Shown piece by piece: positions 2,661-24,000 of a stretch of 24,000 nucleotides of DNA; positions within the stretch are counted from its first letter, which is position 1, and each line of letters starts with the position of its first letter. The stretch spans positions 44,024-68,023 of the forward strand of contig NZ_JAAHHG010000001.1 of assembly GCF_010692555.1 (NCBI RefSeq), read 5' to 3'. The position numbers and the translations under genes are program-made. The notes under the pieces were generated by a model. The model was not told where the DNA came from. It made no database searches and was given only the letters and a program-made list of their open reading frames with translations. The DNA is from Okeania sp. SIO3B5. Lineage in GTDB: Bacteria > Cyanobacteriota > Cyanobacteriia > Cyanobacteriales > Microcoleaceae.

Positions 2661-5600
2661 ATGTCTAGCGATCGCCTACCTCCCCAAAATATTGAAGCGG
2701 AAGAAGCTATTTTAGGTGGTATTCTCCTCGATCCAGAAGCTGTTAGTCGAGTAACAGAGTTATTACGCCCAGAGTTTTTTGCCATTGAAGCTCATCAAAT
2801 TCTTTATAAAGCAATGTGGCAACTTTATAATCAGGGCAAACCTACGGATTTAATGACTGTTACCAGTTGGCTTACTGATAATAATAAATTAGAAAAAATT
2901 GGCGGACAAGTAAAAATAGTTCAACTATTAGAACGAACTGTTTCGGCGGTTAATATTGACCAATATGCTGTTTTAGTTATTGATAAATATATCCGCAGAA
3001 AATTAATTCAAGCAGGAAATGAAATTTTTGATTTAGGGTTTCAAACAGCTACTGAATTAAAAACTATTCTTGACCAAGCTGAACAAAAAATATTTGCTCT
3101 GACTCAGGATAAACCACAACAAGATTTAGTTCCTATTTCTGAGACTTTAATTAATACTTTTCAGGAGATTGAAGATAGAAATGAGGGAATTGCTTTACCT
3201 GGTCTTGCTTGTGGTTTTTACGATCTAGATGCAATGACTGGAGGTTTTCAACGTTCGGATTTAATTATTGTAGCTGGTCGTCCATCAATGGGAAAATGTG
3301 CTGCTTATGATACTTTAGTTTTGCAAAAAGATGGCAGTTTAATTACTTTGGCAGAAGTTTATCAAAGGCAGGAAATAGAGTTATTAACTTTAGGCAAAAA
3401 TTGGAAGTTTCAGATTACTAAACCTTCTGCTTTTATTGATGATGGAATTAAGCCAGTTTTTAGAGTAACGACAAAATCAGGAAGATTTGTAGAGACGACA
3501 ATTACTCATCCTTTTCTAACGGTTGATGGTTGGAAACCTTTGGCAAAATTACAGGTAGGAGAAAAAATAGCTGTACCCCGTCTGTTAGATGTTTTTGGCG
3601 ATGAAAGTATTCCAGAAAATCAGTTTGCTTCTCTGATTGATTCGGATAATTTCTGTCTTTTTCCTATTGTCTTTAAATTAGAAAAATCACAGTTAGCTTT
3701 ATTCATTAGATATTTATTTTCCCAGGATGGATGGATAAAAATATGTGAAACTGGGGCAGTATGTTTAGGCTATTCTGTGGAGAGTGAAAAGTTAGTTAGA
3801 CAAGTACAACATCTTTTGCTCAGATTTGGAATTATTGGTGTTATTGAAAAGGTTTTTAAAGAATTCAGAATTCAGAATTCAGAATTCAGAAGTTGTTTTT
3901 GTAATAGGGATTTATGGCATTTGACAATTACTGATGCTTTGTCTCAGAAAAATTTTATTGTAGATATTGGTGGCTTTGATTCTAAAAAATTCGACTTTGA
4001 CCCTAGCTGGTTAAATTTAACTACAAAAAATAATTTCTGGGATGAATTGGTGAGTCTGATGGAAAATTTTACCGAATCTAAAAGTAGGTCAGTAAATAAT
4101 AGGAGTTTCAAAGGAAACTCTCCTAAAAATTCTGAGAATTTAACTACTGCTGATACTGTCTCTGGGAAAAATTTTCTGGTAGATATGGGAAGTCTTCCGT
4201 CAGAAATTCTTGATTTTGACTCCGATAGATTTGATTTAGATAAACCGGATAATTTCTGGGTTGAGAAATTAGAAAATACAGAGGTTTTCTGGAATAAAGT
4301 TCTTGTTGTAATGGAAAAATTTACTGAATCTAAATCAGAAAATTGGAATTTACTCACAAAGAAAAATTCCTTGGTTAAAAATCTCAAAGATTGGGAAATT
4401 TTCGTGAATGAAATTGTATGTGTGATGGAAAAGTTTGCTGAATCTAGATGGTTTTCACCACATAGGAAAAATAGCATAAGACAGACGGATAAAATTTTTG
4501 GTCATTTAACTACTTCTGAGACTTTATCTGTGAAAAGTTATGTGACAAATATTAGTAGTTCTCCATCAGAAAATTGGGATTTACTCACAAAGAAAAATTC
4601 CTTGGTTGAAAATCTCAAAGATTGGGAAATTTTCGTGAATGAAATTGTATGTGTGATGGAAAAGTTTGCTGAATCTAGATGGTTTTCACCACATAGGAAA
4701 AATAGCATAAGACAGACGGATAAAATTTTTGGTCATTTAACTACTTCTGAGACTTTCGGTGGGAAAAATTTAGGGGCAGATATGAGAAATTTTCCATCTA
4801 TAAATCTGGATTTCCCCTCTAGCATATTAAATTTAGTCATACCGGATAGTTTCTGGGTTAAGCAACTAAAAAATACTGAGATTTTCGGGAATGAAATTAC
4901 TTCTGTAACGGAAAAATTTGTCGCATATAGATGGTTTTCACCACAGAGCAGAAACGGCACAAGACAGACTGATAAAAATTTCAGAAATTTAACGACTTCT
5001 GAGACTTTATCTATGAAAAGTGGTGTGGCAAATATTGGCAGTTCTCTATTAGAAGATTTGGATTTCGACTCCGACAGATTTGATTTAGCGGAACCAGAGA
5101 ATTCCTGGAGCCAACAATTAGAGAATACAGCAATTTTCTGGAATAAATTGGTGAGTCTGATAGAAAATTTTGCCGAATCTAAAAATCAGTCACTCCAGAG
5201 TAGAACTGTCAAAGGAAAGTCGGATAAAAACTCTGAAAATTTAACTACTACTGACACTCTCTATAGAAAAAATATTCTGATAGATATGAGAAACCTTCCA
5301 TCAGAAAATCTAGATTTATACTGTGACAGATTAAACTTAGTCAAACCACAGAATTCCTGCACAGAGCATTTAGAAATTAGGGATATTTTCTGGAATAAAT
5401 TGGTCTATCTGATAGAAAATTTTGCCGAATCTAAAAATCAGTCGCTCCAGAGTAGGAATGTCAAAGGAAAGTCGGATAAAAACTCTGAAAATTTAACTAC
5501 TACTGACACTCTCTATAGAAAAAATATTCTGATAGATATGAGAAACCTTCCATCAGAAAATCTAGATTTATACTGTGACAGATTAAACTTAGTCAAACCA

Positions 5601-7499
5601 CAGAATTCCTGCACAGAGCAATTAGAAAGTAGTGATATTTTCTGGAGTGAATTGGTGAGTCTGGTGGAAAAGTTTGCCGAATCTAAAAATCAGTCGCTCC
5701 AGAGTAGAAGTGTCAAAAGAAGATCTCCTAAAAATTCTGAGAATTTAACGACTACTGATACTATCTGTGGAAGAAATATTCTGGCAGATATAAGAAATTT
5801 TCCATCAGAAAATCAAGATTTTTACTCAGACAGATTAAATTTAGTCAGACCACAGAATTCCTGGAGCGAGCAATTAGAAAGTAGGGATATTTTCTGGAAT
5901 AAATTGGTTAATCTGATAGAAAAATTTGCCGAATCTAAAAATCAGTCGCTCAAAAGTAGAAGTGTTAAAAGAAAGTCAGATAAAAATGCCGATAGTTTAA
6001 CTACTACTGATGCTCTCCATAAGAAAAATATTCTGATAGATACGAGAAACCTTCCATCAGAAAATCTGGATTTCCACTCCGACAGATTAAATTTAGTCAG
6101 ACCACAGAATTCCTGCACAAAGCATTTAGAAAATAGCGATATTTTCTGGGATGAAATTGTTTCAATAGAACCAGTAGGAGAAAAACAAGTATACGATTTG
6201 ACCATACCAGAAACTCATAATTTTGTAGCTAATGATATTTGCCTTCACAATACTAGCTTTGCTGTAAATATTGGTCATAGTATTGCAGCTAATCTCAAAT
6301 TACCAGTAGCAATTTTTAGTCTAGAAATGTCTAAGGAACAATTAGTATTAAGACTATTAGCAAGTGAGGCAAGAATTGAAAGTAATAGATTGCGGTCCGG
6401 GCGAATTAGTCAGAATGAATGGGAACCTTTAACTTCCGCTATTGGTACTCTTGCTGAAATGCCAATTTTTATTGATGATACTCCTAATATTACTGTTAAT
6501 GAAATTCGTTCAAAAGTCAGACAATTACAGAGCGAACAAGGTGGAGCTTTAGGATTAATTTTATTAGATTATTTACAGTTAATGGAGGGTAGTAATACTG
6601 ATAATCGAGTGTTGGAGTTGGCAAGAATTACTAGGAGTTTGAAGGGTTTGGCACGAGAACTTTCGGTGCCGATTATTGCTTTGTCTCAACTTAGCAGAAG
6701 TGTGGAGTCTCGAACTAATAAAAGACCAATGATGTCTGACTTAAGAGAGTCTGGTTGTTTGACTGGGGATACTTTAATTTGTTTAGCTGATGGTAAACAA
6801 ATTCCTATTTCTTGCCTGGTTGGTAAGTCTAATTTTTCTGTTTTGGCGTTGAATGAAAATACTGGAAAATTTGAGTCGGCTATGGTTAGTCGAGTATTTT
6901 CTACTGGGGTTAAACCTATACTTCTTCTGCAAACTTCTTCGGGAAAATTGATTAGGGCTACGGCTAATCATCCTTTCTTTTCTATGGGGGGTTGGAAACA
7001 GTTAAATACTCTGAATATTGGGGATTCTCTTGCTATTTTGAACCAAAAAATGCTTAAATATTCAATATTGTATTGTGGCCAACTCTTGTCTCAAGTAGAT
7101 TTTGGGCCAAAAAATGGTGGAAATTTAGGGTCTGTAGTTAAGTGTCGGGAGTGGGAAAAACCTACTCAAATTGATGTTAACTGGGATGAAATTGTAGAAA
7201 TAAGACCAGATGGTGAGGCAGAGGTTTTTGACTTAACTGTGCCTGGTTTACATAATTTTGTGGCGAATGAGATTGTTGTTCATAACTCTATTGAACAAGA
7301 TGCGGATTTAGTTATTATGCTTTATCGGGATGAGTATTATTCCCCAGATACTCCAGATCAGGGTATTGCTGAGGTGATTATTACTAAGCATCGGAATGGG
7401 CCTACTGGTACGGTTAAGTTATTGTTTGACCCCCAGTTTACTAAGTTTAGAAATTTGGCAATAAGAGGGAACAGGGAACAGGGAACAGGGAACAGATAA
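2661..7499 (+). CDS. dnaB: Replicative DNA helicase DnaB, interrupted by two in-frame inteins
   Basis: The N-terminus MSSDRLPPQNIEAEEAILGGILLDPEA and the C-terminal IITKHRNGPTGTVKLLFDPQFTKFRNL are canonical DnaB. Removing residues 213-1197 and 1366-1542 leaves 450 aa, with a restored Walker A (GRPSMGK|TSF) and RESG|SIEQDADL. Confidence 0.95.
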   Translation: MSSDRLPPQNIEAEEAILGGILLDPEAVSRVTELLRPEFFAIEAHQILYKAMWQLYNQGKPTDLMTVTSWLTDNNKLEKIGGQVKIVQLLERTVSAVNIDQYAVLVIDKYIRRKLIQAGNEIFDLGFQTATELKTILDQAEQKIFALTQDKPQQDLVPISETLINTFQEIEDRNEGIALPGLACGFYDLDAMTGGFQRSDLIIVAGRPSMGKCAAYDTLVLQKDGSLITLAEVYQRQEIELLTLGKNWKFQITKPSAFIDDGIKPVFRVTTKSGRFVETTITHPFLTVDGWKPLAKLQVGEKIAVPRLLDVFGDESIPENQFASLIDSDNFCLFPIVFKLEKSQLALFIRYLFSQDGWIKICETGAVCLGYSVESEKLVRQVQHLLLRFGIIGVIEKVFKEFRIQNSEFRSCFCNRDLWHLTITDALSQKNFIVDIGGFDSKKFDFDPSWLNLTTKNNFWDELVSLMENFTESKSRSVNNRSFKGNSPKNSENLTTADTVSGKNFLVDMGSLPSEILDFDSDRFDLDKPDNFWVEKLENTEVFWNKVLVVMEKFTESKSENWNLLTKKNSLVKNLKDWEIFVNEIVCVMEKFAESRWFSPHRKNSIRQTDKIFGHLTTSETLSVKSYVTNISSSPSENWDLLTKKNSLVENLKDWEIFVNEIVCVMEKFAESRWFSPHRKNSIRQTDKIFGHLTTSETFGGKNLGADMRNFPSINLDFPSSILNLVIPDSFWVKQLKNTEIFGNEITSVTEKFVAYRWFSPQSRNGTRQTDKNFRNLTTSETLSMKSGVANIGSSLLEDLDFDSDRFDLAEPENSWSQQLENTAIFWNKLVSLIENFAESKNQSLQSRTVKGKSDKNSENLTTTDTLYRKNILIDMRNLPSENLDLYCDRLNLVKPQNSCTEHLEIRDIFWNKLVYLIENFAESKNQSLQSRNVKGKSDKNSENLTTTDTLYRKNILIDMRNLPSENLDLYCDRLNLVKPQNSCTEQLESSDIFWSELVSLVEKFAESKNQSLQSRSVKRRSPKNSENLTTTDTICGRNILADIRNFPSENQDFYSDRLNLVRPQNSWSEQLESRDIFWNKLVNLIEKFAESKNQSLKSRSVKRKSDKNADSLTTTDALHKKNILIDTRNLPSENLDFHSDRLNLVRPQNSCTKHLENSDIFWDEIVSIEPVGEKQVYDLTIPETHNFVANDICLHNTSFAVNIGHSIAANLKLPVAIFSLEMSKEQLVLRLLASEARIESNRLRSGRISQNEWEPLTSAIGTLAEMPIFIDDTPNITVNEIRSKVRQLQSEQGGALGLILLDYLQLMEGSNTDNRVLELARITRSLKGLARELSVPIIALSQLSRSVESRTNKRPMMSDLRESGCLTGDTLICLADGKQIPISCLVGKSNFSVLALNENTGKFESAMVSRVFSTGVKPILLLQTSSGKLIRATANHPFFSMGGWKQLNTLNIGDSLAILNQKMLKYSILYCGQLLSQVDFGPKNGGNLGSVVKCREWEKPTQIDVNWDEIVEIRPDGEAEVFDLTVPGLHNFVANEIVVHNSIEQDADLVIMLYRDEYYSPDTPDQGIAEVIITKHRNGPTGTVKLLFDPQFTKFRNLAIRGNREQGTGNR
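3861..3888 (+). repeat. Heptamer array (GAATTCA)x4 inside the intein-1 coding sequence
   Basis: Read directly. It is translated as EFRIQNSEFR and lies where the endonuclease-like region ends and repeat-like sequence begins. Confidence 0.95.
4035..6143 (+). repeat. In-frame tandem repeats within intein 1: 9 units (seven of 252 bp/84 aa, plus 114-bp and 231-bp units), 703 codons
   Basis: Each unit starts F(W/V/G)(N/D/S)(K/E)(L/I)V. Unit boundaries are 4035, 4287, 4401, 4632, 4884, 5136, 5388, 5640 and 5892. Units 6 and 7 are 79/84 aa identical. Homology to the second half of a unit already starts at about 3945. Confidence 0.95.
6756..7286 (+). other. DnaB mini-intein 2 (177 aa, no endonuclease domain)
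   Basis: RESG|CLTGDTLICLADG...NHPFFS...WDEIVEIRPDGEAEVFDLTVPGLHNFVANEIVVHN|SIEQD. From memory this is the same insertion site as the classical Synechocystis DnaB intein. Confidence 0.9.
7467..7494 (+). repeat. Heptamer array (GGGAACA)x4 forming the last codons of dnaB
   Basis: Read directly. It encodes the non-canonical tail ..GNREQGTGNR just before the TAA at 7497-7499. Confidence 0.95.
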
Positions 7500-7594
7500 A
7501 TCATTATCAGTTATGAGGAAAGTTAGAGTACAGTAAAAGAATGAAAGATTAGAAAGCGATCGCTTCTTCAGTTACCAGTTATCAGTCTCAGGAA

Positions 7595-7835
7595 TTTTCT
7601 GAGGAGCAATACCAGAAATATTTTCATCTTGTGAAGCTCTCACAAAGGTTGTTGTTCCCTGATTAAATGTTTCCATCCATCACTTCTCAGTGGAAAAGCA
7701 CCAATTTTTTCATTTCCTGAAGCTCATAAAAAATCGCCACGCCAAAGGATTTTCGGTTCCATACCCACAATTTTTGTGATATTATAAATGATATAAGGGG
7801 CTGTTCGTATATACGCATGACTTTTTATTCAACTA
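7595..7835 (+). repeat. Direct repeat 'A' (241 bp) immediately upstream of the IscB leader
   Basis: Aligns colinearly with 9405-9647, roughly three-quarters identical by eye. The last 20 nt, CATGACTTTTTATTCAACTA (7816-7835), are identical to 9628-9647. Homology stops abruptly at 7835/7836. Confidence 0.85.
7777..7785 (+). promoter_or_regulatory. Candidate extended -10 promoter (TGaTATTAT) inside repeat A
   Basis: TGnTATTAT lies at 7777-7785. The aligned position in A' (9589-9597) reads TGaTATAGT. Both sit 50 nt before the end of the repeat. No strong -35 element. Sequence pattern only. Confidence 0.3.
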
Positions 7836-8125
7836 AATTTCCATGGTCAGAGACAATCGAATATTGAGGAATTATTCCCAGGACTAACCACAAATCTAAT
7901 CAAAACGCAAATTTTGTGTTTAAATGGTTAGTCCAGCCCACTTTCTTCAAGTAAACGTTATTTTGGTCACAATACGTCGGGATGCGCGGCCAGTTCCGAC
8001 CTCTATTGTTCGGCATTAAACAGGCAAAGAGATTTGAAAAGCTAGTGTGCCGAACGTAAAAAGCTGAAATAACCGGGCGAGGCCAACTTTACACTTTTTG
8101 TAGGAGGGACGCAACAATGTCCAAT
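7836..8125 (+). ncRNA. Candidate IscB omegaRNA scaffold (a guide would be the ~16-20 nt just upstream, within 7816-7835)
   Basis: About 280 nt of non-coding leader runs into the iscB start. It is clearly more GC-rich than its surroundings. Stems: GGACTAACCA 7881-7890 / TGGTTAGTCC 7925-7934 (10 bp), GTTCGGCA 8008-8015 / TGCCGAAC 8048-8055 (8 bp), GTCGG 7976-7980 / CCGAC 7996-8000. Position and orientation match known IscB omegaRNAs. The ends are not determined. Confidence 0.5.
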
Positions 8126-9397
8126 TCAAGCAATTATGTATTCGTACTTGATGGAAGTAAAAAACCCCTAACACCATGCAAACCAGCCATGGCAAGGTCA
8201 TTGTTAAAAGCTGGCAAAGCCAAAGTTTTCAAGCGCTATCCATTCACAATAATTCTGAATAAATTAGTAGACGAAGAAAATCAAGGTTTGCAATTAAAAA
8301 TTGACCCTGGTTCCAAACAAACAGGCTTTGCCTTGGTAACACAAAGTGAAGAAGTTATCTTTGCAATGGTTTTAATCCATCGTGGCCAGCAAATCAAAAA
8401 TGCTTTGGAGCGACGACGAACTCTTCGCCGAGGTCGTCGTTACCGAAAAACTCGCTACCGTAAGTGTAGATTTTTCAATCGCAAACGAAAAAAAGGATGG
8501 CTGCCACCAAGTTTAAGGCATCGGGTTTTGACTGTAGAAACCTGGGTTAATAGACTGTCTAAACTAAGTCCGGTAAGTAGTTTGGCTATTGAATTGGTCA
8601 AGTTTGACACCCAGAAAATACAGAACCCAGAAATTTCAGGGGTTGAGTATCAAAAAGGGGAACTGTTTGGTTATGATGTCCGGGAATATCTACTAGAAAA
8701 GTGGGGTCGCTCATGTGCTTATTGCGGGGCAACAGATACTCCTTTAGAAATTGAACATATCGTTCCACGATCAAAGGGTGGTAGTAATAGGGTATCTAAT
8801 TTAGCCATAGCTTGTCATCAATGCAACCAAAATAAGGGCGCTATGGATATTCGGGAATTTCTCGAAAATAAACCGTCTGTACTAACTCGGGTTCTAAAGG
8901 TTGCCAAAACGCCGTTAAAAGATGCTGCTGCGGTGAACTCAACTCGCACATCTATTTTTGAAACTTTAAAAGCAAAAGGTTTACCTATGATTACTGGTAG
9001 TGGTGCTGGTACTAAATACAACCGTCGTCAATTGAATTTGCCAAAGGAACACTGGATAGATGCTGCTTGTATTGGTGAAGTTGAAAAGTTAACAATACTT
9101 ACGAATCAACCCCTAGTCGCCACAGCAATGGGACATGGTTGCCGACAAATGGTTCAAATGGATAAATACGGTTTTCCACGAAAAGGTTACAAAGCAAAAA
9201 AACCTGTACCAGGTTGGAAAACAGGGGATATTATCAATGTCGTCAAAGGCAAAAATGCTGGGTTAAAAGGAGTCAGGATTAAAACGGTGAGAACCAAAGG
9301 CAATTTTGATATCCGAGACGGGGATAAAATTTTGTCTGTATCTCGAAATCATATCCAACCTGTCCATAGACGAGATGGATACAATTACTCGTTTTAA
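8117..9397 (+). CDS. iscB: IscB RNA-guided nuclease (OMEGA system; RuvC with inserted HNH, a Cas9-ancestor family)
   Basis: 426 aa. PLMP-like KKPLTPCKP (res 15-23). RuvC-I LKIDPGSKQTGFA (D63). Arg-rich bridge helix RRRTLRRGRRYRKTRYRKCRFFNRKRKK. RuvC-II LAIELVKFD (E159). HNH CAYCG..EIEHIVPRSKGGSNRVSNLAIACHQCNQNKG. RuvC-III EHWIDAACIG (H312, D315). SD AGGAGG lies 9 nt before the ATG. Confidence 0.88.
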   Translation: MSNSSNYVFVLDGSKKPLTPCKPAMARSLLKAGKAKVFKRYPFTIILNKLVDEENQGLQLKIDPGSKQTGFALVTQSEEVIFAMVLIHRGQQIKNALERRRTLRRGRRYRKTRYRKCRFFNRKRKKGWLPPSLRHRVLTVETWVNRLSKLSPVSSLAIELVKFDTQKIQNPEISGVEYQKGELFGYDVREYLLEKWGRSCAYCGATDTPLEIEHIVPRSKGGSNRVSNLAIACHQCNQNKGAMDIREFLENKPSVLTRVLKVAKTPLKDAAAVNSTRTSIFETLKAKGLPMITGSGAGTKYNRRQLNLPKEHWIDAACIGEVEKLTILTNQPLVATAMGHGCRQMVQMDKYGFPRKGYKAKKPVPGWKTGDIINVVKGKNAGLKGVRIKTVRTKGNFDIRDGDKILSVSRNHIQPVHRRDGYNYSF

Positions 9398-9404
9398 GTA
9401 TATT

Positions 9405-9647
9405 TTTTCTAAGAGCAATATAAGAAATATTTTCATCTTGTGAAGCTTCTATAAATAGTTGTTTCTCTCTGATTAAATCTTTCGATTCATCCCTCCTACG
9501 TTGAAAACCACAAATCTTTTCATTCTCTGAAGCTCATGAAAAAAATCGCCGCGCCAAAAGATTTTCAGTTCTATCCTCGCAATTTTTATGATATAGTAAG
9601 TACTATAAGGTATCTTTCGCCTATGCACATGACTTTTTATTCAACTA
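9405..9647 (+). repeat. Direct repeat 'A-prime' (243 bp) starting 8 nt after the iscB stop
   Basis: Colinear homologue of 7595-7835, ending with the identical 20-mer (9628-9647), which is followed by GAGATAGT. Confidence 0.85.
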
Positions 9648-9836
9648 GAGATAGTATAGTTTTGAGGGCGATCGCTTTTTCAGTTATCAGCTTTCAAGTT
9701 AAATTGTTGATATTTTAAGGATGAAATATTAGAGAGCGATCGCTTTTTCCAGATAGTAGAAAAGTAGAAAATCAGCTAAATAAAACAATATATTCATAGA
9801 AATAATTGTGGCTTCCCGATTTTTATGTATGGCTCC

Positions 9837-11003
9837 TTAGAGTTTAAAATTCTTGAAAGGATTAGTAATTTTACGCTCTATGTTTTTTGCATAAATCCTT
9901 GAATAAATCCATAGAATTAAGGAAATAGTTGATATTACTGCCCAAATTAACAAGGAAATTTTCCAAGAGAAATAAAAATAATATACTAATTGCCAATAAA
10001 GTAACAATATAATTACAATAAATTTGCATATTCTTAAATTAACTTTAGGATACAAAAACATAGAAATAAAGAATACTACCAAAATTCCTATAAAAGTGTA
10101 CATTCCACTAATTAAAACAATATTGACTGGAGAATAAATGTCATAGTCATTCATAGAATAGAAAAGTTTTTTTGCATATATAAAACTAATACAAAAAGAT
10201 ATAGTTATTACTATATATCCTGCTATATTTCTGTCTAATTTTGAGAAATAAAATTTTATTAATGTAGGTGAAAAAAGCATCAAAATTATGAATAAAAATA
10301 AGAAAAAGAAAAACCTTATACACAATTTTAAAAAAAAGACAACTAAATTGGTATTATCAACAGATTCAATAAAAAAACCAAAGTGAATAACTGTCCCAAA
10401 TGTTTCCAATAAAATTAACATCCATATAATTTCTCTCCGAAATTTTAAATACAAATTTTCAGTATGATTATATTTAACATTTAGAAAAATATTACGCCAG
10501 TCATCCCGAGTTGGAGTGCGGTATTTTATGAGATGATAAAGCAAGGAACATTGTAACTCTATATCCAAAGTTTCAAATAAAGATTGCCATTTTTGACTAA
10601 GATTAATTTCAATAAATGCTTGTTTTATCTCATTAACATATTTCTGTTTTAGTTTTGATGTTTCTGATAGTTGCGATAGTTCTAGCAGTTTTAGTTCTAG
10701 TTTTAGTTCTAGTTCTTGTTCTAATTCTGATGCAAATACTTCTGCTATTTTTAGATCACTACCGAATTCTTTTTCTTTGAGAAGCTTTTTTAACTGTAAA
10801 AAATCTTTTTTATCAAACAATTCTATAGCACACAAAGGAATTACTATTCTTGGATCTATCTTACGTTGAGAAATTTCTTCAGGAGTACATTTATCAGAAA
10901 TTAACCAAGCTACTTTTGCCATAGCTTCTCTTTCTGATTTCGGAAAATGAACTGCTATCCATTCCCAATCTTTTAAATTAAATTCCTTATCAACTTCTGG
11001 CAT
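9837..11003 (-). CDS. Hypothetical protein: ~190-aa soluble N-terminal region with a coiled-coil segment, plus about 6 predicted TM helices
   Basis: 388-aa ORF. SD AGGAG lies 8 nt before the ATG, and the start is only 20 nt downstream of the NACHT gene stop, suggesting an operon. The C-terminal half is made of long hydrophobic segments (e.g. FFFFLFLFIILMLF, IVLISGMYTFIGILVVFFISMF). Very AT-rich. I recognise no family. Confidence 0.6.
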   Translation of the reverse strand: MPEVDKEFNLKDWEWIAVHFPKSEREAMAKVAWLISDKCTPEEISQRKIDPRIVIPLCAIELFDKKDFLQLKKLLKEKEFGSDLKIAEVFASELEQELELKLELKLLELSQLSETSKLKQKYVNEIKQAFIEINLSQKWQSLFETLDIELQCSLLYHLIKYRTPTRDDWRNIFLNVKYNHTENLYLKFRREIIWMLILLETFGTVIHFGFFIESVDNTNLVVFFLKLCIRFFFFLFLFIILMLFSPTLIKFYFSKLDRNIAGYIVITISFCISFIYAKKLFYSMNDYDIYSPVNIVLISGMYTFIGILVVFFISMFLYPKVNLRICKFIVIILLLYWQLVYYFYFSWKISLLIWAVISTISLILWIYSRIYAKNIERKITNPFKNFKL

Positions 11004-11023: not shown

Positions 11024-13342
11024 CTAATTATTTAGACTCGTAAATTCTGCAATATTTAAAGCAGCTAACCTCTGAATATTTTCATCAGAATGATAGAGTA
11101 AATCATTTAAAGTTTCTCTCGAATAAGGAGTACCAATTTTCACTAAATCTCTCATTGCCATTTCCGAACCTTTCTCAGCTAAACCCTTCAATAAAGAAAC
11201 TGCAATATCTCCCATATTAATAAGTGCTAGACGAGCATCCACCAAATTAATATCCTCATAATACATAAATAAAATATCCGCCGCTTGTGGCAAATTTGTT
11301 TTAGATAAAGCCTTAACAGACGCCTGACGAACTTCCAGAGATTCAGAATAATTCAAAGCATTTTCTAGAAACTCAAAAACAACTTTTCCTCTACCTCTTT
11401 CGCGAACATCAGAAGCAACTGCTCCAAAAGCTCTAGCTAAATTTTCATCAGAATTTGCTTCTACCAATTTTTGCTTAAACTCTTCAATAATTCCCTCTGC
11501 CAAAATAGGAGAAACTTCTTGAGCATCTGCTAAACATTCAAAAGCTGTCAGAGAATCTTCCTGATAAATAACCTCTATTAAATTTGTACTATTCCCAGCA
11601 AAACCACACCAAAGTTTAATTGTTTCTCGCCAACGTTCCGGGTCATTTTTAAACCTTTCTATTAACTCATTTTCTTTATCTCTCAAAGCTGTTGCTGCAA
11701 AATATTCTTGCAAAGTTAAATGAGCAAACTGATATTTATCTCCCCTTTCAACTTCCAATAATAATCCACTACGCTCGACAATTTCTTTTAATATTGGTTG
11801 AGTATCTGTTTCAGGATTGAGATTCAGATCGGGTAAAACTTTTTGAATTTGTTCCAAGACAATTTGATAATCCAAACTCAAATCATTCTTTTGTTGTTTA
11901 CTAGCATTATCCTGAGCAAATAAAGCTAAATGTTGTAACACTCTCCGCTTATGAGCGCTCTCTTTATATTGATTAAAATTATTCTGCCATTGATTCAATA
12001 AAATATGAGTAGATTCTTGATAAAAATCTGACCGAGACTGAGGTAAAACAAAAGCAGGTTGAGTATAAAGATGAGCAACAATAGTCAACATTAAAGGATT
12101 TCTAGCTAACTCCATAATTAACGGTCTATCCCTCAAAGTTTGTATGAGTTGATCGATAGATTTTTCCGGTGGCATTTCAGATTTCCATGCTTCTAAAAAA
12201 AGTCGCATTTGTCTGTCGCTAAATTCTTTAATATCTAAAGTTTTCTCCACCGACTCAGCAAAATCATTGCGATAAACTGCTGCCCGACAAGTAATAATTG
12301 CTCGACATTTATCGTACTTATCTAATAAATCATTAATAGCTTGTACAACTTGAGAGCGAATCAAACTTTTCACTTCATCTAATCCATCAAATAATAGAAA
12401 TAATTTTCCTTTTTCCAGACTTTGTTCGACAAAAGAATTAGCTTTAGGAAAATCATCCCTATCTAAAGCTTCTACTAATTTCTGTTTTAAGACTTCCATG
12501 TTTAGGGCAGAAATTTCCACTTCATTGAGGCGATATAACTCTAATAAAATCGGCACATATTCATTAGAGGAAGTTTTTAATTTTTCCCTCGCCCAAGAGA
12601 GAACAAGATATTTTAATAAAAGAGTTTTTCCAGCTCCAGGTTGCCCTTTAATAGCCAAGCGATTATATTTTTTAATCTCAGAAAAATTAATTGGTTCATT
12701 ATTAGCTTTTTCCAAGAATTGCAAATCCACATAAATTTCTTGCAGACTTAAAGGACGATTCGGACGAAAAGGAATTTTTAGTTGTTCGTGTTTATTAATT
12801 AGACCTTTTTTATAGCGCTTTAGAGAGAAATTCCAAAACAATTCAATACCAGAAATTTGATTGTATAACCAGTTGCCAATAGTCTTAATAAAATCAGTTC
12901 CCCAACCTTGTATAGCTTCCTTAAAAAGGAACAGAATAAAAAATGCTATAGCAGCAAACCAAGGCAACCCATAAAAGAAATCATCTTTTATTTTTTTCCA
13001 GAAATTACTATCTATTTCATCCTTGACTTTTTCGTATTCTACCTCGTAAATTTCAGTAATTTCTAGTTTAGTTAAACCAACAGAATTTTCACCATAAATT
13101 TCAATTATTAATTGACTATCCATTTTCTGCTCATTTTCAACATGACGTTTAGCAGATTCTTTAATTTTTTGAATGATAACTTCCCGACTTTTAATATTAG
13201 GTGTAGGTGTTTGAGTATAACTAGGTAATATCCAACTCCAAGACAATACAATAGTTAAAGTTAGTAGAAACAAACTAATCGAAACCAGTCGGTTAAATTT
13301 GTGTCGAAAAAGTTGAGTGTAAGATAAATTAGATTTAGGCAT
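11024..13342 (-). CDS. Membrane-anchored NACHT-family STAND NTPase with C-terminal HEAT-like repeats
   Basis: 772 aa. Two N-terminal TM segments (res ~19-41 and ~124-140). Pre-NACHT LQEIYVDLQF. Walker A GQPGAGKT (12623-12646). Walker B LFLLFDGLDEV. The C-terminus has HEAT/PBS-lyase-like repeats (EVRQASVKALSK..., ENIQRLAALNI). Confidence 0.8.
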   Translation of the reverse strand: MPKSNLSYTQLFRHKFNRLVSISLFLLTLTIVLSWSWILPSYTQTPTPNIKSREVIIQKIKESAKRHVENEQKMDSQLIIEIYGENSVGLTKLEITEIYEVEYEKVKDEIDSNFWKKIKDDFFYGLPWFAAIAFFILFLFKEAIQGWGTDFIKTIGNWLYNQISGIELFWNFSLKRYKKGLINKHEQLKIPFRPNRPLSLQEIYVDLQFLEKANNEPINFSEIKKYNRLAIKGQPGAGKTLLLKYLVLSWAREKLKTSSNEYVPILLELYRLNEVEISALNMEVLKQKLVEALDRDDFPKANSFVEQSLEKGKLFLLFDGLDEVKSLIRSQVVQAINDLLDKYDKCRAIITCRAAVYRNDFAESVEKTLDIKEFSDRQMRLFLEAWKSEMPPEKSIDQLIQTLRDRPLIMELARNPLMLTIVAHLYTQPAFVLPQSRSDFYQESTHILLNQWQNNFNQYKESAHKRRVLQHLALFAQDNASKQQKNDLSLDYQIVLEQIQKVLPDLNLNPETDTQPILKEIVERSGLLLEVERGDKYQFAHLTLQEYFAATALRDKENELIERFKNDPERWRETIKLWCGFAGNSTNLIEVIYQEDSLTAFECLADAQEVSPILAEGIIEEFKQKLVEANSDENLARAFGAVASDVRERGRGKVVFEFLENALNYSESLEVRQASVKALSKTNLPQAADILFMYYEDINLVDARLALINMGDIAVSLLKGLAEKGSEMAMRDLVKIGTPYSRETLNDLLYHSDENIQRLAALNIAEFTSLNN

Positions 13343-13742: not shown

Positions 13743-13797
13743 GCTGAGAGCTGATAGCTGATAGCTGTTTGCGCAGCAGTCCGCAGGAAATGCTTAC
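13743..13797 (+). repeat. Short dispersed repeat ('S' family), copy 2
   Basis: GCTGAGAGCTGATAGCTGATAGCTGTTTGCGCAGCAGTCCGCAGGAAATGCTTAC aligns with 2184-2231 and abuts the stop codon of the Uma2-like gene. Confidence 0.6.
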
Positions 13798-14354
13798 TAA
13801 TCAAACACAGGAGGCCAAAGTTCAATAATAGGTAATTCCCACTCACCAAATAATTCAGGAATAGTCAAAATATCTCCATTTTTTAACTCAATTTCTTCAC
13901 CATTAGGACGATAAACTATAACTATTTCCTTGTCAGGATCTATCAATATTCCTACTTCCGCTCCCAATTCTAAATACTTCTTTATTTTCTTTTTTAAAGG
14001 TTTAATTCTGTCACTTTGAGACTTAATTTCTACTACTAAATCTGGCACCAACTCCCCAAAATAACGAACACTTTTTTTCAAACGTTGGGCACGAACAAAA
14101 GAAACATCAGGAACCTTTAAATTAGTATCCGGAAGAATAAAAGCACCACTAGAATCAAACAAACGTCCGAGACGACGTGGATTAACCCAAGCATAAAGAG
14201 AAGCTGCTAAACGAATGCCAATTTCACTAGAAATAATATCCGACGGACCCATGACTAATATTTTTCCTTCGTCTAATTCTAATTGATAATCTAAATCTAA
14301 TTTATCAAGAGTACCTTGCAATATTTCTAAGTCTTTAACTGTAAGATTTGACAT
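13797..14354 (-). CDS. Uma2-family (DUF820) putative endonuclease
   Basis: 185 aa with the family's PD-(D/E)xK-like layout: VPDVSFV, LVPDLVVEIKSQSD, KKIKKYLELGAEVGILIDPDKEIVIVY. From memory this family is highly expanded in cyanobacteria. Confidence 0.75.
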   Translation of the reverse strand: MSNLTVKDLEILQGTLDKLDLDYQLELDEGKILVMGPSDIISSEIGIRLAASLYAWVNPRRLGRLFDSSGAFILPDTNLKVPDVSFVRAQRLKKSVRYFGELVPDLVVEIKSQSDRIKPLKKKIKKYLELGAEVGILIDPDKEIVIVYRPNGEEIELKNGDILTIPELFGEWELPIIELWPPVFD

Positions 14355-14450: not shown

Positions 14451-14972
14451 TTATCCAGCAATTCTCAATAATTCCACATCAAAAATCAGAGTAGCATTAG
14501 GAGGTATAACCCCACCAGCACCACTAGCGCCATACCCTAATTCTGGTGGAATAATAAACTTACGACGTTCACCAACTTTCATACTAGCGACCCCTTCATC
14601 CCAACCTTTAATAACTCGACCTACACCAACTGGAAATTGGAAAGGTTGATTGCGATCGCGAGAACTATCAAACTTAGAACCATCCGTTAAAGTTCCAGTA
14701 TAGTGAACCACAACTGTTTGACCTTTTTGAGGAGTAGCGCCATCTCCTTCTTTCAAGACCACATACTGAAGACCAGATTCAGTAGTAATAGTTTCTTCGT
14801 TATTTTCAGTCATAATATTTTCTGCCACTTGTTCTTGAACTTCAGTAGAATTTATAGTACTTTGTGTATTTTGAGAAGCAACTGCCCCTTTTTCCGAACC
14901 TGTGATTTGAGCAACAATCAAAACTAAACCACAGAATATTACTACTGCCAGACTAATAATAATTCCTCGCAA
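14451..14972 (-). CDS. FKBP-type peptidyl-prolyl cis-trans isomerase with an N-terminal membrane anchor or signal
   Basis: [80 protein letters not shown] is a canonical FKBP domain. It has a TTG start, supported by a strong SD (AGGAGG, 8-nt spacer). Confidence 0.9.
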
Positions 14973-15333: not shown

Positions 15334-15506
15334 CTATCAAATTTAATCACTGCTGCAAATCTAAATTCTGAATTCTCAATTCTCAATTCTCAATTCTCAA
15401 TTCTCAATTCTCAATTCTAACTCACCCCTCTCAAACTTAATCACTGCTGCAAATCTAAATTCTGAATTCTCAATTCTCAATTCTCAATTCTAAATTCTAA
15501 ATTCAT
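15334..15506. repeat. Two tandem ~85-90-bp units, each TCAAAYTTAATCACTGCTGCAAATCTA plus an (AATTCTS)n heptamer array
   Basis: Heptamer arrays lie at 15364-15419 (8 units) and 15458-15506 (7 units). The second array runs right up to the stop codon of the 15507-15833 gene. Confidence 0.9.
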
Positions 15507-16919: not shown

Positions 16920-17081
16920 TACCAAATTGAAAAAAGAATGTTACAAATAAACTGGCTAGTAAATAACTAATAATCCACCTAAAACCTAAAACCTAGCACC
17001 TCGTACCTAAAACCTACCACCTACCACCTACCACCTAACACCTAGAAAATTATTTGTAGCAAACATTTATCACGCTTGGTA
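16920..17081. mobile_element. TIR-bounded MITE (162 bp) carrying an (ACCTAMM)n heptamer array; TTA target-site duplication
   Basis: The ends TACCAAATTGAAAAAAGAATGTTACAAATAA and TTATTTGTAGCAAACATTTATCACGCTTGGTA are imperfect inverted repeats. It is flanked by TTA (16917-16919 and 17082-17084). The empty site AGTTATTACTCAATAG is present in the sister unit near 16536-16551. Confidence 0.85.
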
Positions 17082-19525: not shown

Positions 19526-19606
19526 AGTCAAAAGTTTAAATAAAGTCAAAAGTCAAAAGTCAAAAGTCAAAAGTTTAAATAAAGTTATAAAGTTAAAGGT
19601 CAAAAT
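19526..19606. repeat. Heptamer array (AAGTCAA/AAGTTTA...)n
   Basis: Begins 8 nt upstream of the kinase start codon. It is inverted relative to the array at 17264-17334. Confidence 0.9.
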
Positions 19607-19644
19607 TTATTAGGCATTTTTGACTATATTATTAATTAGGATAA

Positions 19645-20050
19645 GTGACATACTCCCACACTAACCTTGCGGTATAGTGTGGGCTTCTCGTTTCGCAGTC
19701 CCGGTACCCCGTCGGACAAGCGCGTGCTTTAAGGACGGAATGCCCTACCGCCCTATTTTTGATATTTATTGCTGCATTCACATCACGATCAATCGCAATA
19801 CCGCAATGCGGACAAGAATGAGTTCGTATGTTTAATTTTTTGGGAACTTTTTTTCCACAGTTTGAGCAATTTTGGCTGGTATTTTTGGGGTTCACTGCTA
19901 TAGTTTTCACCTCCAGCATTTGCCTCCTGCGGAGGAGCTGCGCTAACGGCTTTGACAGTTAAAATAGTTAGAAATTGTCCCCAGCCAGCATCATTAATTG
20001 ATTTACTCAAACGAGTCTTTGCTAGCCCTTTAATGTTTAAATTTGCCTCC
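19645..20050 (-). pseudogene. tnpB: 5'-truncated, frameshifted TnpB (IS200/IS605-family RNA-guided nuclease) with its right end and omegaRNA-like region
   Basis: Two overlapping frames. The first reads ..[32 protein letters not shown]. The second reads [50 protein letters not shown] (zinc finger plus RuvC-III). The N-terminal half is missing. The GC-rich 3' region carries the hairpin CCCACACTA/TAGTGTGGG and ends ..GGGAGTATGTCA at about 19646. Confidence 0.85.
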
Positions 20051-20233
20051 GGCACGAGGGGAGTAGGGGAGTAGGGGAGAATTTTTTTGCCCAACTATGC
20101 GCTCTTTAATGCGCTCCATGCATGAGCATGAAGAGCTGAAAACCATGTACTTTTTCAATACCTAAAAAGGCTAAAACCTTTATCTGGTAATCATTTGATA
20201 TTTAATCAGCAAACCCTAATTAAAGATAATTTA

Positions 20234-20539: not shown

Positions 20540-20630
20540 TTACTTCTTACTTCTTACTTCTTACTTCTTAATGCATGACTTCTTACTTCTTACTTCTTAC
20601 TTCTTACTTCTTACTTCTTAATGCATGACT
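20540..20630. repeat. Two (TTACTTC)n heptamer arrays, each followed by TTAATGCATGAC
   Basis: Read directly: 4 then 5-6 units. A TIR-like CGTAACATTCTTTTTTCAAATCGGGA at 20688-20713 suggests a third, degenerate MITE copy spanning about 20470-20713. Confidence 0.85.
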
Positions 20631-23255: not shown

Positions 23256-24000
23256 TTGACATACTCCCGACGCTCCCCTACGGGAGAGCGCGGGATTCTT
23301 CAGTCAGAGAGGCCCTGACCGCAGTTTTAACAGAAGTGATGCCCTCCTTCTGTGTTGATAGCAATCCAACCCACCTCCATCCCCTCCCGGGAGGGGAGCT
23401 AGAGGGGTGGGTGAGTTATAATCACGGTCTAATTCTTGACCACAATTACTACAAGAATGCCAGCGCTCAGATAAGCTTTTAGAAACTTTTCTCAAGCACT
23501 CCCAACAATATTGAGACGTACCTTTTGGGTCTACGCATGATAACTCGTTTACCCAGTTTCCAAGCCACATACTCTAAAACTTGGATGAATTGACCAAAAG
23601 CTACATCTTGTAAAGACTTATTCAGTCGTGACTTTGCAGATTGGCCGTTTGGTAAGAACTGACCATTGTCAGCTAATTTCGCTTTGCAACGTCGAAGTAA
23701 ATTTGAGAGCTGCAAATCTTCGCGCGAAAATCACACTAATATCTGAAAACAGATGGTAAGCCAGTTTGAATTGCCAGTCCAGTCGTTGTCTAGCTATAAG
23801 TTGGTGCAGTTTTGCTATTTTACGTTTGAGAATTTTCCAAGATTTTGAATGTTTCTGTTTCTTAGCCAATCTCACCTGAAGTTTAGATAATCTATGTTCA
23901 CAGAGCCTAAAAAACTTAGGGACTTCTATAAACTCACCGTCGCTAGTCACAGCATAGTGCAACAACCCTAAATCAATACATGCATGAGTTATCTTCGGTG
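23256..24000 (-). pseudogene. tnpB: TnpB pseudogene (at least 2 frameshifts plus a 49-bp palindromic insertion), partial at the window edge, with its right end and omegaRNA-like region
   Basis: Three frames read as follows. Frame 1: ..ACIDLGLLHYAVTSDGEFIEVPKFF..KLHQLIARQRLDWQFKLAYHL. Frame 2: EDLQLSNLLRRCKAKLADNGQFLPNGQSAKSRLNKSLQDVAFGQF. Frame 3: VDPKGTSQYCWEC..HSCSNCGQELDRDYN. RuvC-III is split by a GC-rich palindrome at 23366-23414. The right end ..GGGAGTATGTCA lies at about 23257-23268, the same terminus as the 19645 copy. Confidence 0.85.

Follow-up and report, generated by a model that had tools for sequence, protein, structure and literature searches.

IscB is the ancestor of Cas9 and forms a well-studied class, with solved structures and uses in genome editing. 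In IscB elements the scaffold of the omegaRNA is bounded by the right end (RE) of the transposon, and the guide is encoded beyond that end, on the 5' side of the scaffold; the genes upstream tend to share the orientation of iscB, and the target-adjacent motif (TAM) is the motif that abuts the left end (LE) (Meers et al., bioRxiv 10.1101/2023.03.14.532601). HEARO RNAs were later shown to be the omegaRNA of IscB (Meers et al., bioRxiv 10.1101/2023.03.14.532601; Goltsman et al., PMC9755519), and most IscB loci have no linked TnpA (PMC9755519). The non-autonomous ISC elements of cyanobacteria measure 1.3-1.7 kb, have conserved termini, make no target-site duplication, and insert upstream of or within a short specific target; their mobility is presumed to depend on a Y1 transposase supplied in trans (Kapitonov et al., PMC4810608). 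Here, we analyze an iscB locus in a 24,000-nucleotide stretch of DNA from Okeania sp. SIO3B5 (contig NZ_JAAHHG010000001.1), referred to as the window, and we are highly confident that the segment running from 7882 to 9412/9415 is a single-gene non-autonomous IS200/IS605-family (ISC) transposon encoding IscB and its HEARO-type omegaRNA. This reading is carried by the observed identity of protein and RNA, the ends of the element, an empty site, the lack of target duplication, conservation, covariation, and purifying selection. Except for the transposase, all of the ISC features listed above are seen in the element.

The ends were read from copies elsewhere. A scan of a genome collection with the IscB protein yielded 23 related loci, mostly from Okeania, and positions 7300-9900 were aligned to them by BLASTN. 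We observe that homology to the window begins at 7881/7882 and ends at 9414-9419 across these loci, with at least 14 independent Okeania loci sharing 7882-9415 between flanks that are unrelated on both sides. All copies begin with GACTAACC and end with TTTTTTCTAAGAG, and the two termini occur only as a pair, around iscB sequence. Both are kept in two internally deleted copies, L017 (3767-4399, 633 bp), which retains the full omegaRNA and the last ~320 nt, and L021 (3947-4650, ~700 bp). We note in passing that these two copies resemble non-coding passengers of the miniature inverted-repeat transposable element (MITE) or palindrome-associated transposable element (PATE) kind.

With respect to the insertion itself, a metagenome scan with the gene downstream of the element (9837-11003, minus strand) recovered two syntenic loci, L024 and L025, which are without IscB or HEARO sequence and whose neighbour genes are 80-93% identical to those of the window at the DNA level. 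The empty site in L025 reads ...TTTTCCCAG-GAG-CAAC... (at greater length, ...caaatattcagaaagttttcccag-GAG-caacaccagaaatattc...), and the occupied site in the window reads ...cgaatattgaggaattattcccag[GACTAACC...TTCTAA]GAG-caatataagaaatattt..., which gives a junction core of CCCAG-GAG-CAAC in L025 versus CCCAG[GACTAACC...CTAA]GAG-CAAT in the window. The insertion thus lies immediately 5' of GAG in the iscB orientation, at a junction with a leeway of 0-2 nt, given that the first letters of the element are likewise GA. Since the last 3 nt of the shared block (GAG) are also found at the empty site, the insert amounts to 1531 bp, compared to 1534 bp for the block, and the comparison of empty and occupied junctions at this single empty site reveals no target-site duplication. 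The triplet that follows the element is GAG in 12 of 15 copies (GAC in two and GAA in one), and the bases beyond it are not conserved; we infer that the target, or TAM, begins with GAG.

The gene carried by the element encodes IscB, as is evident from a curated equivalog hidden Markov model, domain content, catalytic residues, and predicted fold. NCBIfam equivalog NF040563 (guided_IscB, "RNA-guided endonuclease IscB") matches residues 8-320 at 461.7 bits (cut-off, 175), and Pfam matches RRXRR at 242 bits (residues 8-181), as well as HNH, HNH_5, and HNH_4 at residues 200-243, with HNH lying between RuvC-II and RuvC-III. The RuvC motifs are IDPGS at residue 62 (D63), ELVKFD at 159 (E159), and EHWIDAA at 311 (H312, D315), and those of the HNH domain are CAYC at 200, EIEH at 211 (H214), and CHQCN at 233. 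At residue 17 the N-terminal motif reads PLTP rather than PLMP, in an N-terminus that is alignable to those of TbaIscB, OgeuIscB, and IsrB. Ten residues (D63, E159, C200, C203, E213, H214, C233, C236, H312, and D315) are invariant in a 40-sequence family alignment. This agrees with the preliminary description of this DNA, made from its letters, which had reported a 426-residue open reading frame (ORF) with the IscB hallmarks in order and had placed each motif correctly; the comparison with IscB and Cas9 profiles that it proposed bears out the assignment as well, with the Cas9d and Cas9 models staying below their cut-offs.

The structural data point the same way. TbaIscB, OgeuIscB and its engineered variants, HfmIscB, OrufIscB, and IsrB are the best sequence matches in the PDB, and the alignment puts the catalytic D/E/H/H/D in register with the solved IscBs, with the IDPG, ELxxF, HNH, and (D/E)H(W/Y)(I/L)DA motifs aligned. 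An AlphaFold2 model of the protein has a mean predicted local distance difference test score (pLDDT) of 77.5, with low confidence in the Arg-rich helix (104-121) and a loop (162-186). When this model is searched against the PDB with Foldseek, the best nine matches (E = 4e-23 to 2e-16) are ternary structures in which IscB or IsrB is bound to omegaRNA and DNA, Cas9d and Cas9 structures rank below them, and the whole-chain alignments to IscB structures span ~510 columns. The C-terminal 106 residues (321-426) are predicted to form a beta-rich domain (pLDDT mostly 75-90), presumably the TAM-interacting domain. The ratio of nonsynonymous to synonymous divergence (dN/dS) of IscB among intact copies is 0.07-0.18, and the intact motifs and this purifying selection suggest that the window protein is catalytically competent.

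The leader of iscB is the IscB omegaRNA, as indicated by a HEARO match above the gathering score and by covariation. A cmscan search against Rfam 15 aligns HEARO (RF02033) on the iscB strand over model positions 1-211 of 211 (99.1 bits versus a gathering score of 83, E = 1.5e-19), with its 3' end 24 nt before the ATG. It is the sole Rfam match in a scan of the whole window, and no second match appears in 7400-9900 even at E <= 1. Three stems had been picked out in the preliminary description, and each turns out to be, or to sit within, a HEARO helix. The stem 7881-7890/7925-7934 is P1, for which the model has 8 bp (7882-7889/7926-7933) and this copy one fortuitous extra pair on each side; 7976-7980/7996-8000 falls within an 8-bp helix and 8008-8015/8048-8055 within a 9-bp helix. 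P1 also gives the RE side a strong hairpin (7882-7933). A local GC peak, likewise noted earlier, is real but modest (43% in 7950-8249 versus 33-36% in the flanks; the element as a whole has ~41%). As for the 280-nt leader that was put forward as a candidate omegaRNA, the RNA is indeed present, but it is not all scaffold, since the guide is host flank lying 5' of the scaffold; the start had been set at 7836, whereas scaffold and element begin at 7882 and 7836-7881 is host DNA, of which only the last ~16 nt are presumed guide. In the Shine-Dalgarno-like region downstream of the scaffold, TAGGAGGGACGCAACAATG is kept among the Okeania copies.

Covariation was scored after the Rfam structure had been transferred onto eleven aligned copies, two of them from Microseira (proteins ~56% identical) and the other nine from Okeania or a close relative. 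Compensatory (double) changes, which had been suggested as a check on the stems, occur in 20 of 61 HEARO pairs, with 84.9% of cells paired; none of 500 shuffles reaches the observed values, and slid-partner controls give at most 6 pairs. RNAalifold, run blind, recovers the main helices, with compensatory changes in 22 of 56 pairs. The number of independent events is nevertheless small, because the two Microseira sequences account for most of the double changes; the outcome is still consistent with the curated Rfam family. The scaffold is 92.5% identical to that of L004 and 90.6% identical to that of L005, where the synonymous divergence (dS) of iscB is 1.2-1.5, i.e., it is more conserved than neutral sites. 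Among the related copies, those in L006 (~3798-3850) and L013 (~3445-3497) have a ~54-nt insertion at the same scaffold position (corresponding to 7970 in the window), and their omegaRNAs fall below the HEARO gathering score; L013 additionally has a 348-nt insertion further on and a frameshifted ORF.

Sequence 5' of 7882 is unrelated among 15 copies, and everything from 7882 on is common to them. By analogy with OgeuIscB, from which the length of 16 nt is assumed, the guide is presumed to be the ~16 nt of host flank ending at 7881, GAGGAATTATTCCCAG. Its only exact match in the window is its own site; one off-site match (14953-14968, minus strand, 3 mismatches) is within chance expectation. The coordinates of these features are collected in Table 1.

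Table 1. Features of the iscB element and of the adjoining host repeats (window coordinates)
Feature	Position	Strand	Basis or remark
Mobile element, ISC-type non-autonomous IS200/IS605-family transposon	7882..9415	+	Shared block of 1534 bp
omegaRNA guide GAGGAATTATTCCCAG, presumed	7866..7881	+	Host flank directly 5' of scaffold
omegaRNA scaffold, Rfam HEARO RF02033	7882..8092	+	cmscan, 99.1 bits; 5' end is the transposon end (RE in the nomenclature of Meers et al.)
Shine-Dalgarno-like GGAGG	8104..8108	+	8 nt before the iscB ATG; read from the sequence
iscB, 426 aa	8117..9397	+	NCBIfam, Pfam, PDB, and fold matches
iscB layout, first half			PLMP-like N-terminal domain, RuvC-I (D63), Arg-rich bridge helix (~98-126), RuvC-II (E159)
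iscB layout, second half			HNH (C200/C203, H214, C233/C236), RuvC-III (H312, D315), beta-rich C-terminal domain (321-426)
GAG, retained target-site nucleotides and start of presumed TAM	9413..9415	+	3' of protospacer in iscB orientation; opposite strand reads CTC next to LE
Host repeat R, copy A ("repeat A" of the preliminary description)	7588..7835		Not part of element
Host repeat R, copy B, part 3' of insertion	9416..9647		Alignment of copy A, element-free copy B, and L025

The steps by which such an element would live are drawn from characterised relatives, and both the life-cycle model and the TAM logic are those of Meers et al. (bioRxiv 10.1101/2023.03.14.532601). Because the guide of an IscB element lies outside it, transcription must come from outside (bioRxiv 10.1101/2023.03.14.532601). 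In the window, dnaB (2661-7499, plus strand, 1612 aa) ends 382 nt upstream of the element on the same strand as iscB, which fits both the published orientation bias and the need for outside transcription. A pattern scan called no intrinsic terminator on the plus strand between 7499 and 7882, and, with no promoter-like or terminator-like site between dnaB and 7882, read-through from dnaB is the simplest source of the RNA. Transcription would thus enter from outside the element, probably from dnaB, and produce an RNA in which ~16 nt of flanking host sequence (GAGGAATTATTCCCAG) precede the 211-nt scaffold; IscB would bind this guide-scaffold RNA. If a TnpA acting in trans excised the element, the donor joint would read GAGGAATTATTCCCAG|GAGCAA, and this rejoined site, a protospacer followed by a GAG-type TAM, would be cut by both nuclease sites of IscB, HNH and RuvC; repair templated by an element-bearing sister chromosome would then restore the copy. 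The occupied site presumably escapes cutting, since the protospacer there precedes GACTAA and not GAG.

The transposase has to be supplied from elsewhere in this scheme. The element holds only the RNA and iscB and is therefore non-autonomous, and the earlier statement that the window has no Y1 transposase ORF stands, with no Y1_Tnp match by Pfam in any of the 18 window ORFs of >= 90 aa (iscB included) and none by tblastn. The Pfam search covered the window and the tblastn search the window and the fetched loci; a transposase supplied in trans would be encoded elsewhere in the genome. The window does contain two tnpB fragments, a sign of past IS605-family activity in this genome. The first is a C-terminal third with a frameshift at 19632-20094 (minus strand), between two histidine-kinase genes, with a Cas12f1-like TNB zinc-finger domain (66.7 bits) and a RuvC-like "DAGWGQF" frame; the second is an OrfB_IS605 fragment at 23669-23965 (minus strand), near the window end.

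Deletions, frameshifts, or truncations affect the sister copies in L007, L013, L015-L017, and L020-L022, and the window copy is intact in both ORF and RNA. Some copies have been entered by other elements: group II introns interrupt iscB at different codons in L008 (3217-4359, 1.1 kb) and L009 (5054-7250, 2.2 kb), each insertion ending in a sense-strand match to group II intron domain V/VI, and in L005 (5352-5430) the 3' end of a group II intron begins right at the end of the IscB element.

Several observations weigh against our reading of the locus as an ISC transposon with a working nuclease and RNA. The C-terminal domain has no significant sequence-profile alignment to any solved IscB TAM-interacting domain. 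Conservation outside the element is limited to the 3 nt GAG, a short stretch for a TnpA target or a TAM, and the LE-side hairpin is weak (DNA fold z = -1.6), with a candidate ACGAG...CTCGT at 9369-9391 read by eye. For the omegaRNA, no sigma-70 promoter from which the start of the guide could be deduced was called on the plus strand of 7500-7881, where by-eye candidates remain below threshold. Searches by tblastn with two Y1 queries found no TnpA in the window or within ~4 kb of the 23 related loci (best match E = 0.13), which is a weak negative. Finally, dS to the nearest copies is 0.25-0.30, and the insertion is consequently not recent. An old insertion and the lack of a Y1 transposase in the window or beside the 23 related copies are also what a stranded relic would present, that is, a genuine IscB/omegaRNA transposon which is immobile without its cognate TnpA and only vertically inherited, with a nuclease that is idle or decaying, and the many decayed or intron-interrupted sister copies described above fit that picture too. 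We nonetheless hold a relic to be unlikely, given that the ORF is intact with all catalytic residues present, that the omegaRNA is conserved beyond synonymous sites, and that dN/dS of ~0.1 across genomes reveals selection on the protein, although this is a between-copy measure that cannot show this copy to be still in use. IscB loci without TnpA are, moreover, the rule and not the exception (PMC9755519; PMC4810608). The same lack of TnpA near any of the 24 copies, combined with clear purifying selection on protein and RNA, would fit an Okeania IscB family that behaves as a transposase-independent homing element, persisting purely by omegaRNA-guided cutting of empty alleles and recombinational copying; the guide of this copy may in that case be made by read-through from the essential dnaB, with a host tandem repeat as the origin of its sequence. 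The same facts are explained equally well by a TnpA encoded elsewhere in the genome, and we regard such homing as quite improbable.

Purifying selection without a linked transposase, co-orientation of iscB with the essential gene dnaB, and a guide taken from a host repeat with a nearby paralogue could also be read as signs of domestication, in which IscB and its omegaRNA downstream of dnaB have been recruited, e.g., as an RNA-guided regulator or a defence nuclease. This we find hard to credit. The orthologous loci L024 and L025 do not have the element, which is hence not a conserved host feature, and its copies occupy many unrelated sites where the flank, and with it the guide, differs from one site to the next. 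Repeat copy A and the guide agree at only 8 of 16 positions in an ungapped comparison, and the matches to defence models are to generic HNH only. Two further explanations concern the identity of the protein, and we consider both refuted, with next to no probability left to either. GenBank and JGI names for the protein and its relatives ("HNH endonuclease" and "McrA") and the restriction of PADLOC and Pfam HNH matches to residues ~186-257 would suit a McrA-type or group II intron-type HNH endonuclease that stands alone behind a leader structured by chance, yet invariant RuvC-I, II, and III motifs flank the HNH domain, the IscB equivalog scores 2.6 times its cut-off over residues 8-320, the whole chain matches the fold of IscB complexes, and the leader is a full-length HEARO match with covariation. 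A miniature type II effector of clustered regularly interspaced short palindromic repeats (CRISPR), Cas9d-like or a CRISPR-associated IscB using a CRISPR RNA (crRNA), could draw on weak partial matches to Cas9d and Cas9 models through the HNH region and on the Cas9 structures lower in the fold-match list. The scores, however, are far below the cut-offs (Cas9d, 51 bits versus 375; Cas9, 23 versus 100), there is no CRISPR-like array in the window and no cas1 or cas2 among its ORFs, and a protein of 426 aa has no recognition (REC) lobe. An identity as IsrB is ruled out by the presence of the HNH domain.

The element lies inside a host repeat, here called R, with a unit of ~240 nt, which is arrayed in tandem downstream of dnaB and also dispersed to other places. 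Copy B of this repeat is split by the element into 7866-7881, GAG (9413-9415), and 9416-9647, such that its first ~19 nt are 7866-7881 plus GAG. Copies A and B are ~80% identical, and TTTTCATTCTCTGAAGCTC and CATGACTTTTTATTCAAC are strongly conserved blocks of the repeat. Tandem R units are found at the element-free loci (L024 7818-8050 and 7530-7674; L025 7843-8195), and a further copy is present in L015 (~715-915). Because R is present at these orthologous empty loci, the repeats predate the insertion and are not parts of the element. We accordingly rejected R as a target duplication or as transposon ends, since the copies are 80% identical, are tandem at empty orthologous loci, and have the element inside copy B. 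The repeat was also rejected as the template/variable pair of a diversity-generating retroelement, the mismatches not being adenine-specific. A motif upstream of repeat A that looked like a leftover of the element's right end (TTTTCTGAGGAG versus TTTTTCTAAGAG) was judged to be mostly host-repeat sequence and dropped, as it recurs in L015 and L025 with no element next to it. Nor is there support for R as a structured RNA or a small gene: it has no Rfam match at E <= 1, no conserved fold (RNAalifold covariation terms are unfavourable on both strands), and no conserved ORF, with minus-strand mini-ORFs that are not conserved and stop early in one L025 copy. HIP1 palindromes (GCGATCGC) flank the R repeats at 7557-7564, 9668-9675, and 9736-9743.

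Repeats are frequent elsewhere in the window. Many intergenic heptamer short tandem repeats occur (1334-1397, 15356-15504, 16976-17044, 19542-19609, 20540-20620, and others); heptamer repeats of the short tandemly repeated repetitive (STRR) type are typical of filamentous cyanobacteria. The dnaB gene has two Intein_splicing stretches and a LAGLIDADG homing-endonuclease domain (aa 344-436), and inside its first intein are ~2.7 kb of in-frame long tandem repeats, of period 231 at 4334-4756 and period 252 (4.1 copies) at 5133-6159 according to Tandem Repeats Finder; its C-terminus runs into a GGGAACA heptamer array (7466-7495). On the other side of the element, the minus strand encodes a 772-aa NACHT/STAND NTPase with HEAT repeats (11024-13342), followed by the ORF at 9837-11003, which encodes a multi-pass membrane-like protein of 388 aa at 21-30% GC. 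No Pfam or PADLOC match was obtained for the latter, and it is ~41% identical in the syntenic loci, versus 85-93% (DNA) for neighbour genes. The ORF at 13797-14354 (minus strand) encodes a putative restriction endonuclease of the Uma2 family, for which PADLOC gives a further match to its candidate defence family PDC-S03.

Taken as a whole, the element is of a known kind, ordinary and apparently intact, and its protein and RNA are already named in public databases. The expectation that routine annotation would stop at "HNH endonuclease" holds for GenBank, where the identical protein from Okeania sp. SIO3B5 is NEO51645.1 ("MAG: HNH endonuclease"), and fails for RefSeq and UniRef, which already use "RNA-guided endonuclease IscB" (RefSeq, WP_293072804.1). 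Nor is the protein unusually compact, as had been proposed: it has at least 8000 homologues at E <= 1e-20, the best 120 of which are mostly 422-429 aa long, and 426 aa is thus a normal size in a large cyanobacterial clade; the named ones among these 120 are cyanobacterial and include the Limnospira/Arthrospira IscBs. Full-text literature searches returned no paper on an Okeania or Trichodesmium IscB. As RefSeq names the protein and a routine Rfam scan finds the RNA, the locus has little significance beyond its correct annotation. For one cyanobacterial orthologue of 426 aa, the present analysis adds the exact ends of the element, its natural guide and empty site, and an inferred TAM of the GAG type, which could seed a TAM or activity test of another compact IscB, along with the clarification that the flanking ~240-nt repeats are host sequence outside the element.

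Compared with the solved systems, the window protein has the same domain order as OgeuIscB (PDB 7UTN, 7XHT, and 8CSZ), TbaIscB, and HfmIscB, from PLMP to the C-terminal domain, with the catalytic D/E/H/H/D aligned. The OgeuIscB group gives the best fold match (E = 4e-23) and likewise has, upstream of the gene, a HEARO-type omegaRNA that begins with the guide, although identity to the OgeuIscB structures in the structural alignment is 18-22% and OgeuIscB is longer (496 aa versus 426 aa). The TAMs would differ too, since the one proposed for the window starts with GAG and that of OgeuIscB is NWRRNA (PMC12660989). IsrB (PDB 8DMB) shares the RuvC and bridge-helix core but is without the HNH domain that the window protein has, and Cas9d (type II-D) shares the RuvC-HNH core but has a REC lobe and a CRISPR array, both absent in the window.

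Closer relatives are found among cyanobacteria, where the Limnospira/Arthrospira IscB (423 aa) is 59-61% identical to the window protein over 99% of its length and uses an RNA of the same HEARO family. Relative to the HEARO consensus, the window RNA starts P1 with GACUAACC instead of GUCAacua and has the second helix inside P1 deleted, and it belongs to a different sub-lineage. In its arrangement, the locus resembles ISGst5 of Geobacillus stearothermophilus (bioRxiv 10.1101/2023.03.14.532601), in which the scaffold is likewise bounded by the RE with the guide outside, the upstream host gene is co-oriented, and the TAM abuts the LE, and from which we adopted the model of donor-joint cleavage and "homing." For ISGst5, TnpA excision and IscB cleavage have been demonstrated, with a TAM of TTCAT, whereas both steps are predicted for the window element, for which no TnpA has been located. 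Similar in overall make-up is ISC1-1_MA of Microcystis aeruginosa (Kapitonov et al. 2016, PMC4810608), likewise a non-autonomous cyanobacterial ISC element that encodes IscB only, with different termini and target (5'-GT...CG-3' and N|ATGA, compared to 5'-GACTAACC...TTCTAA-3' and GAG in the window).

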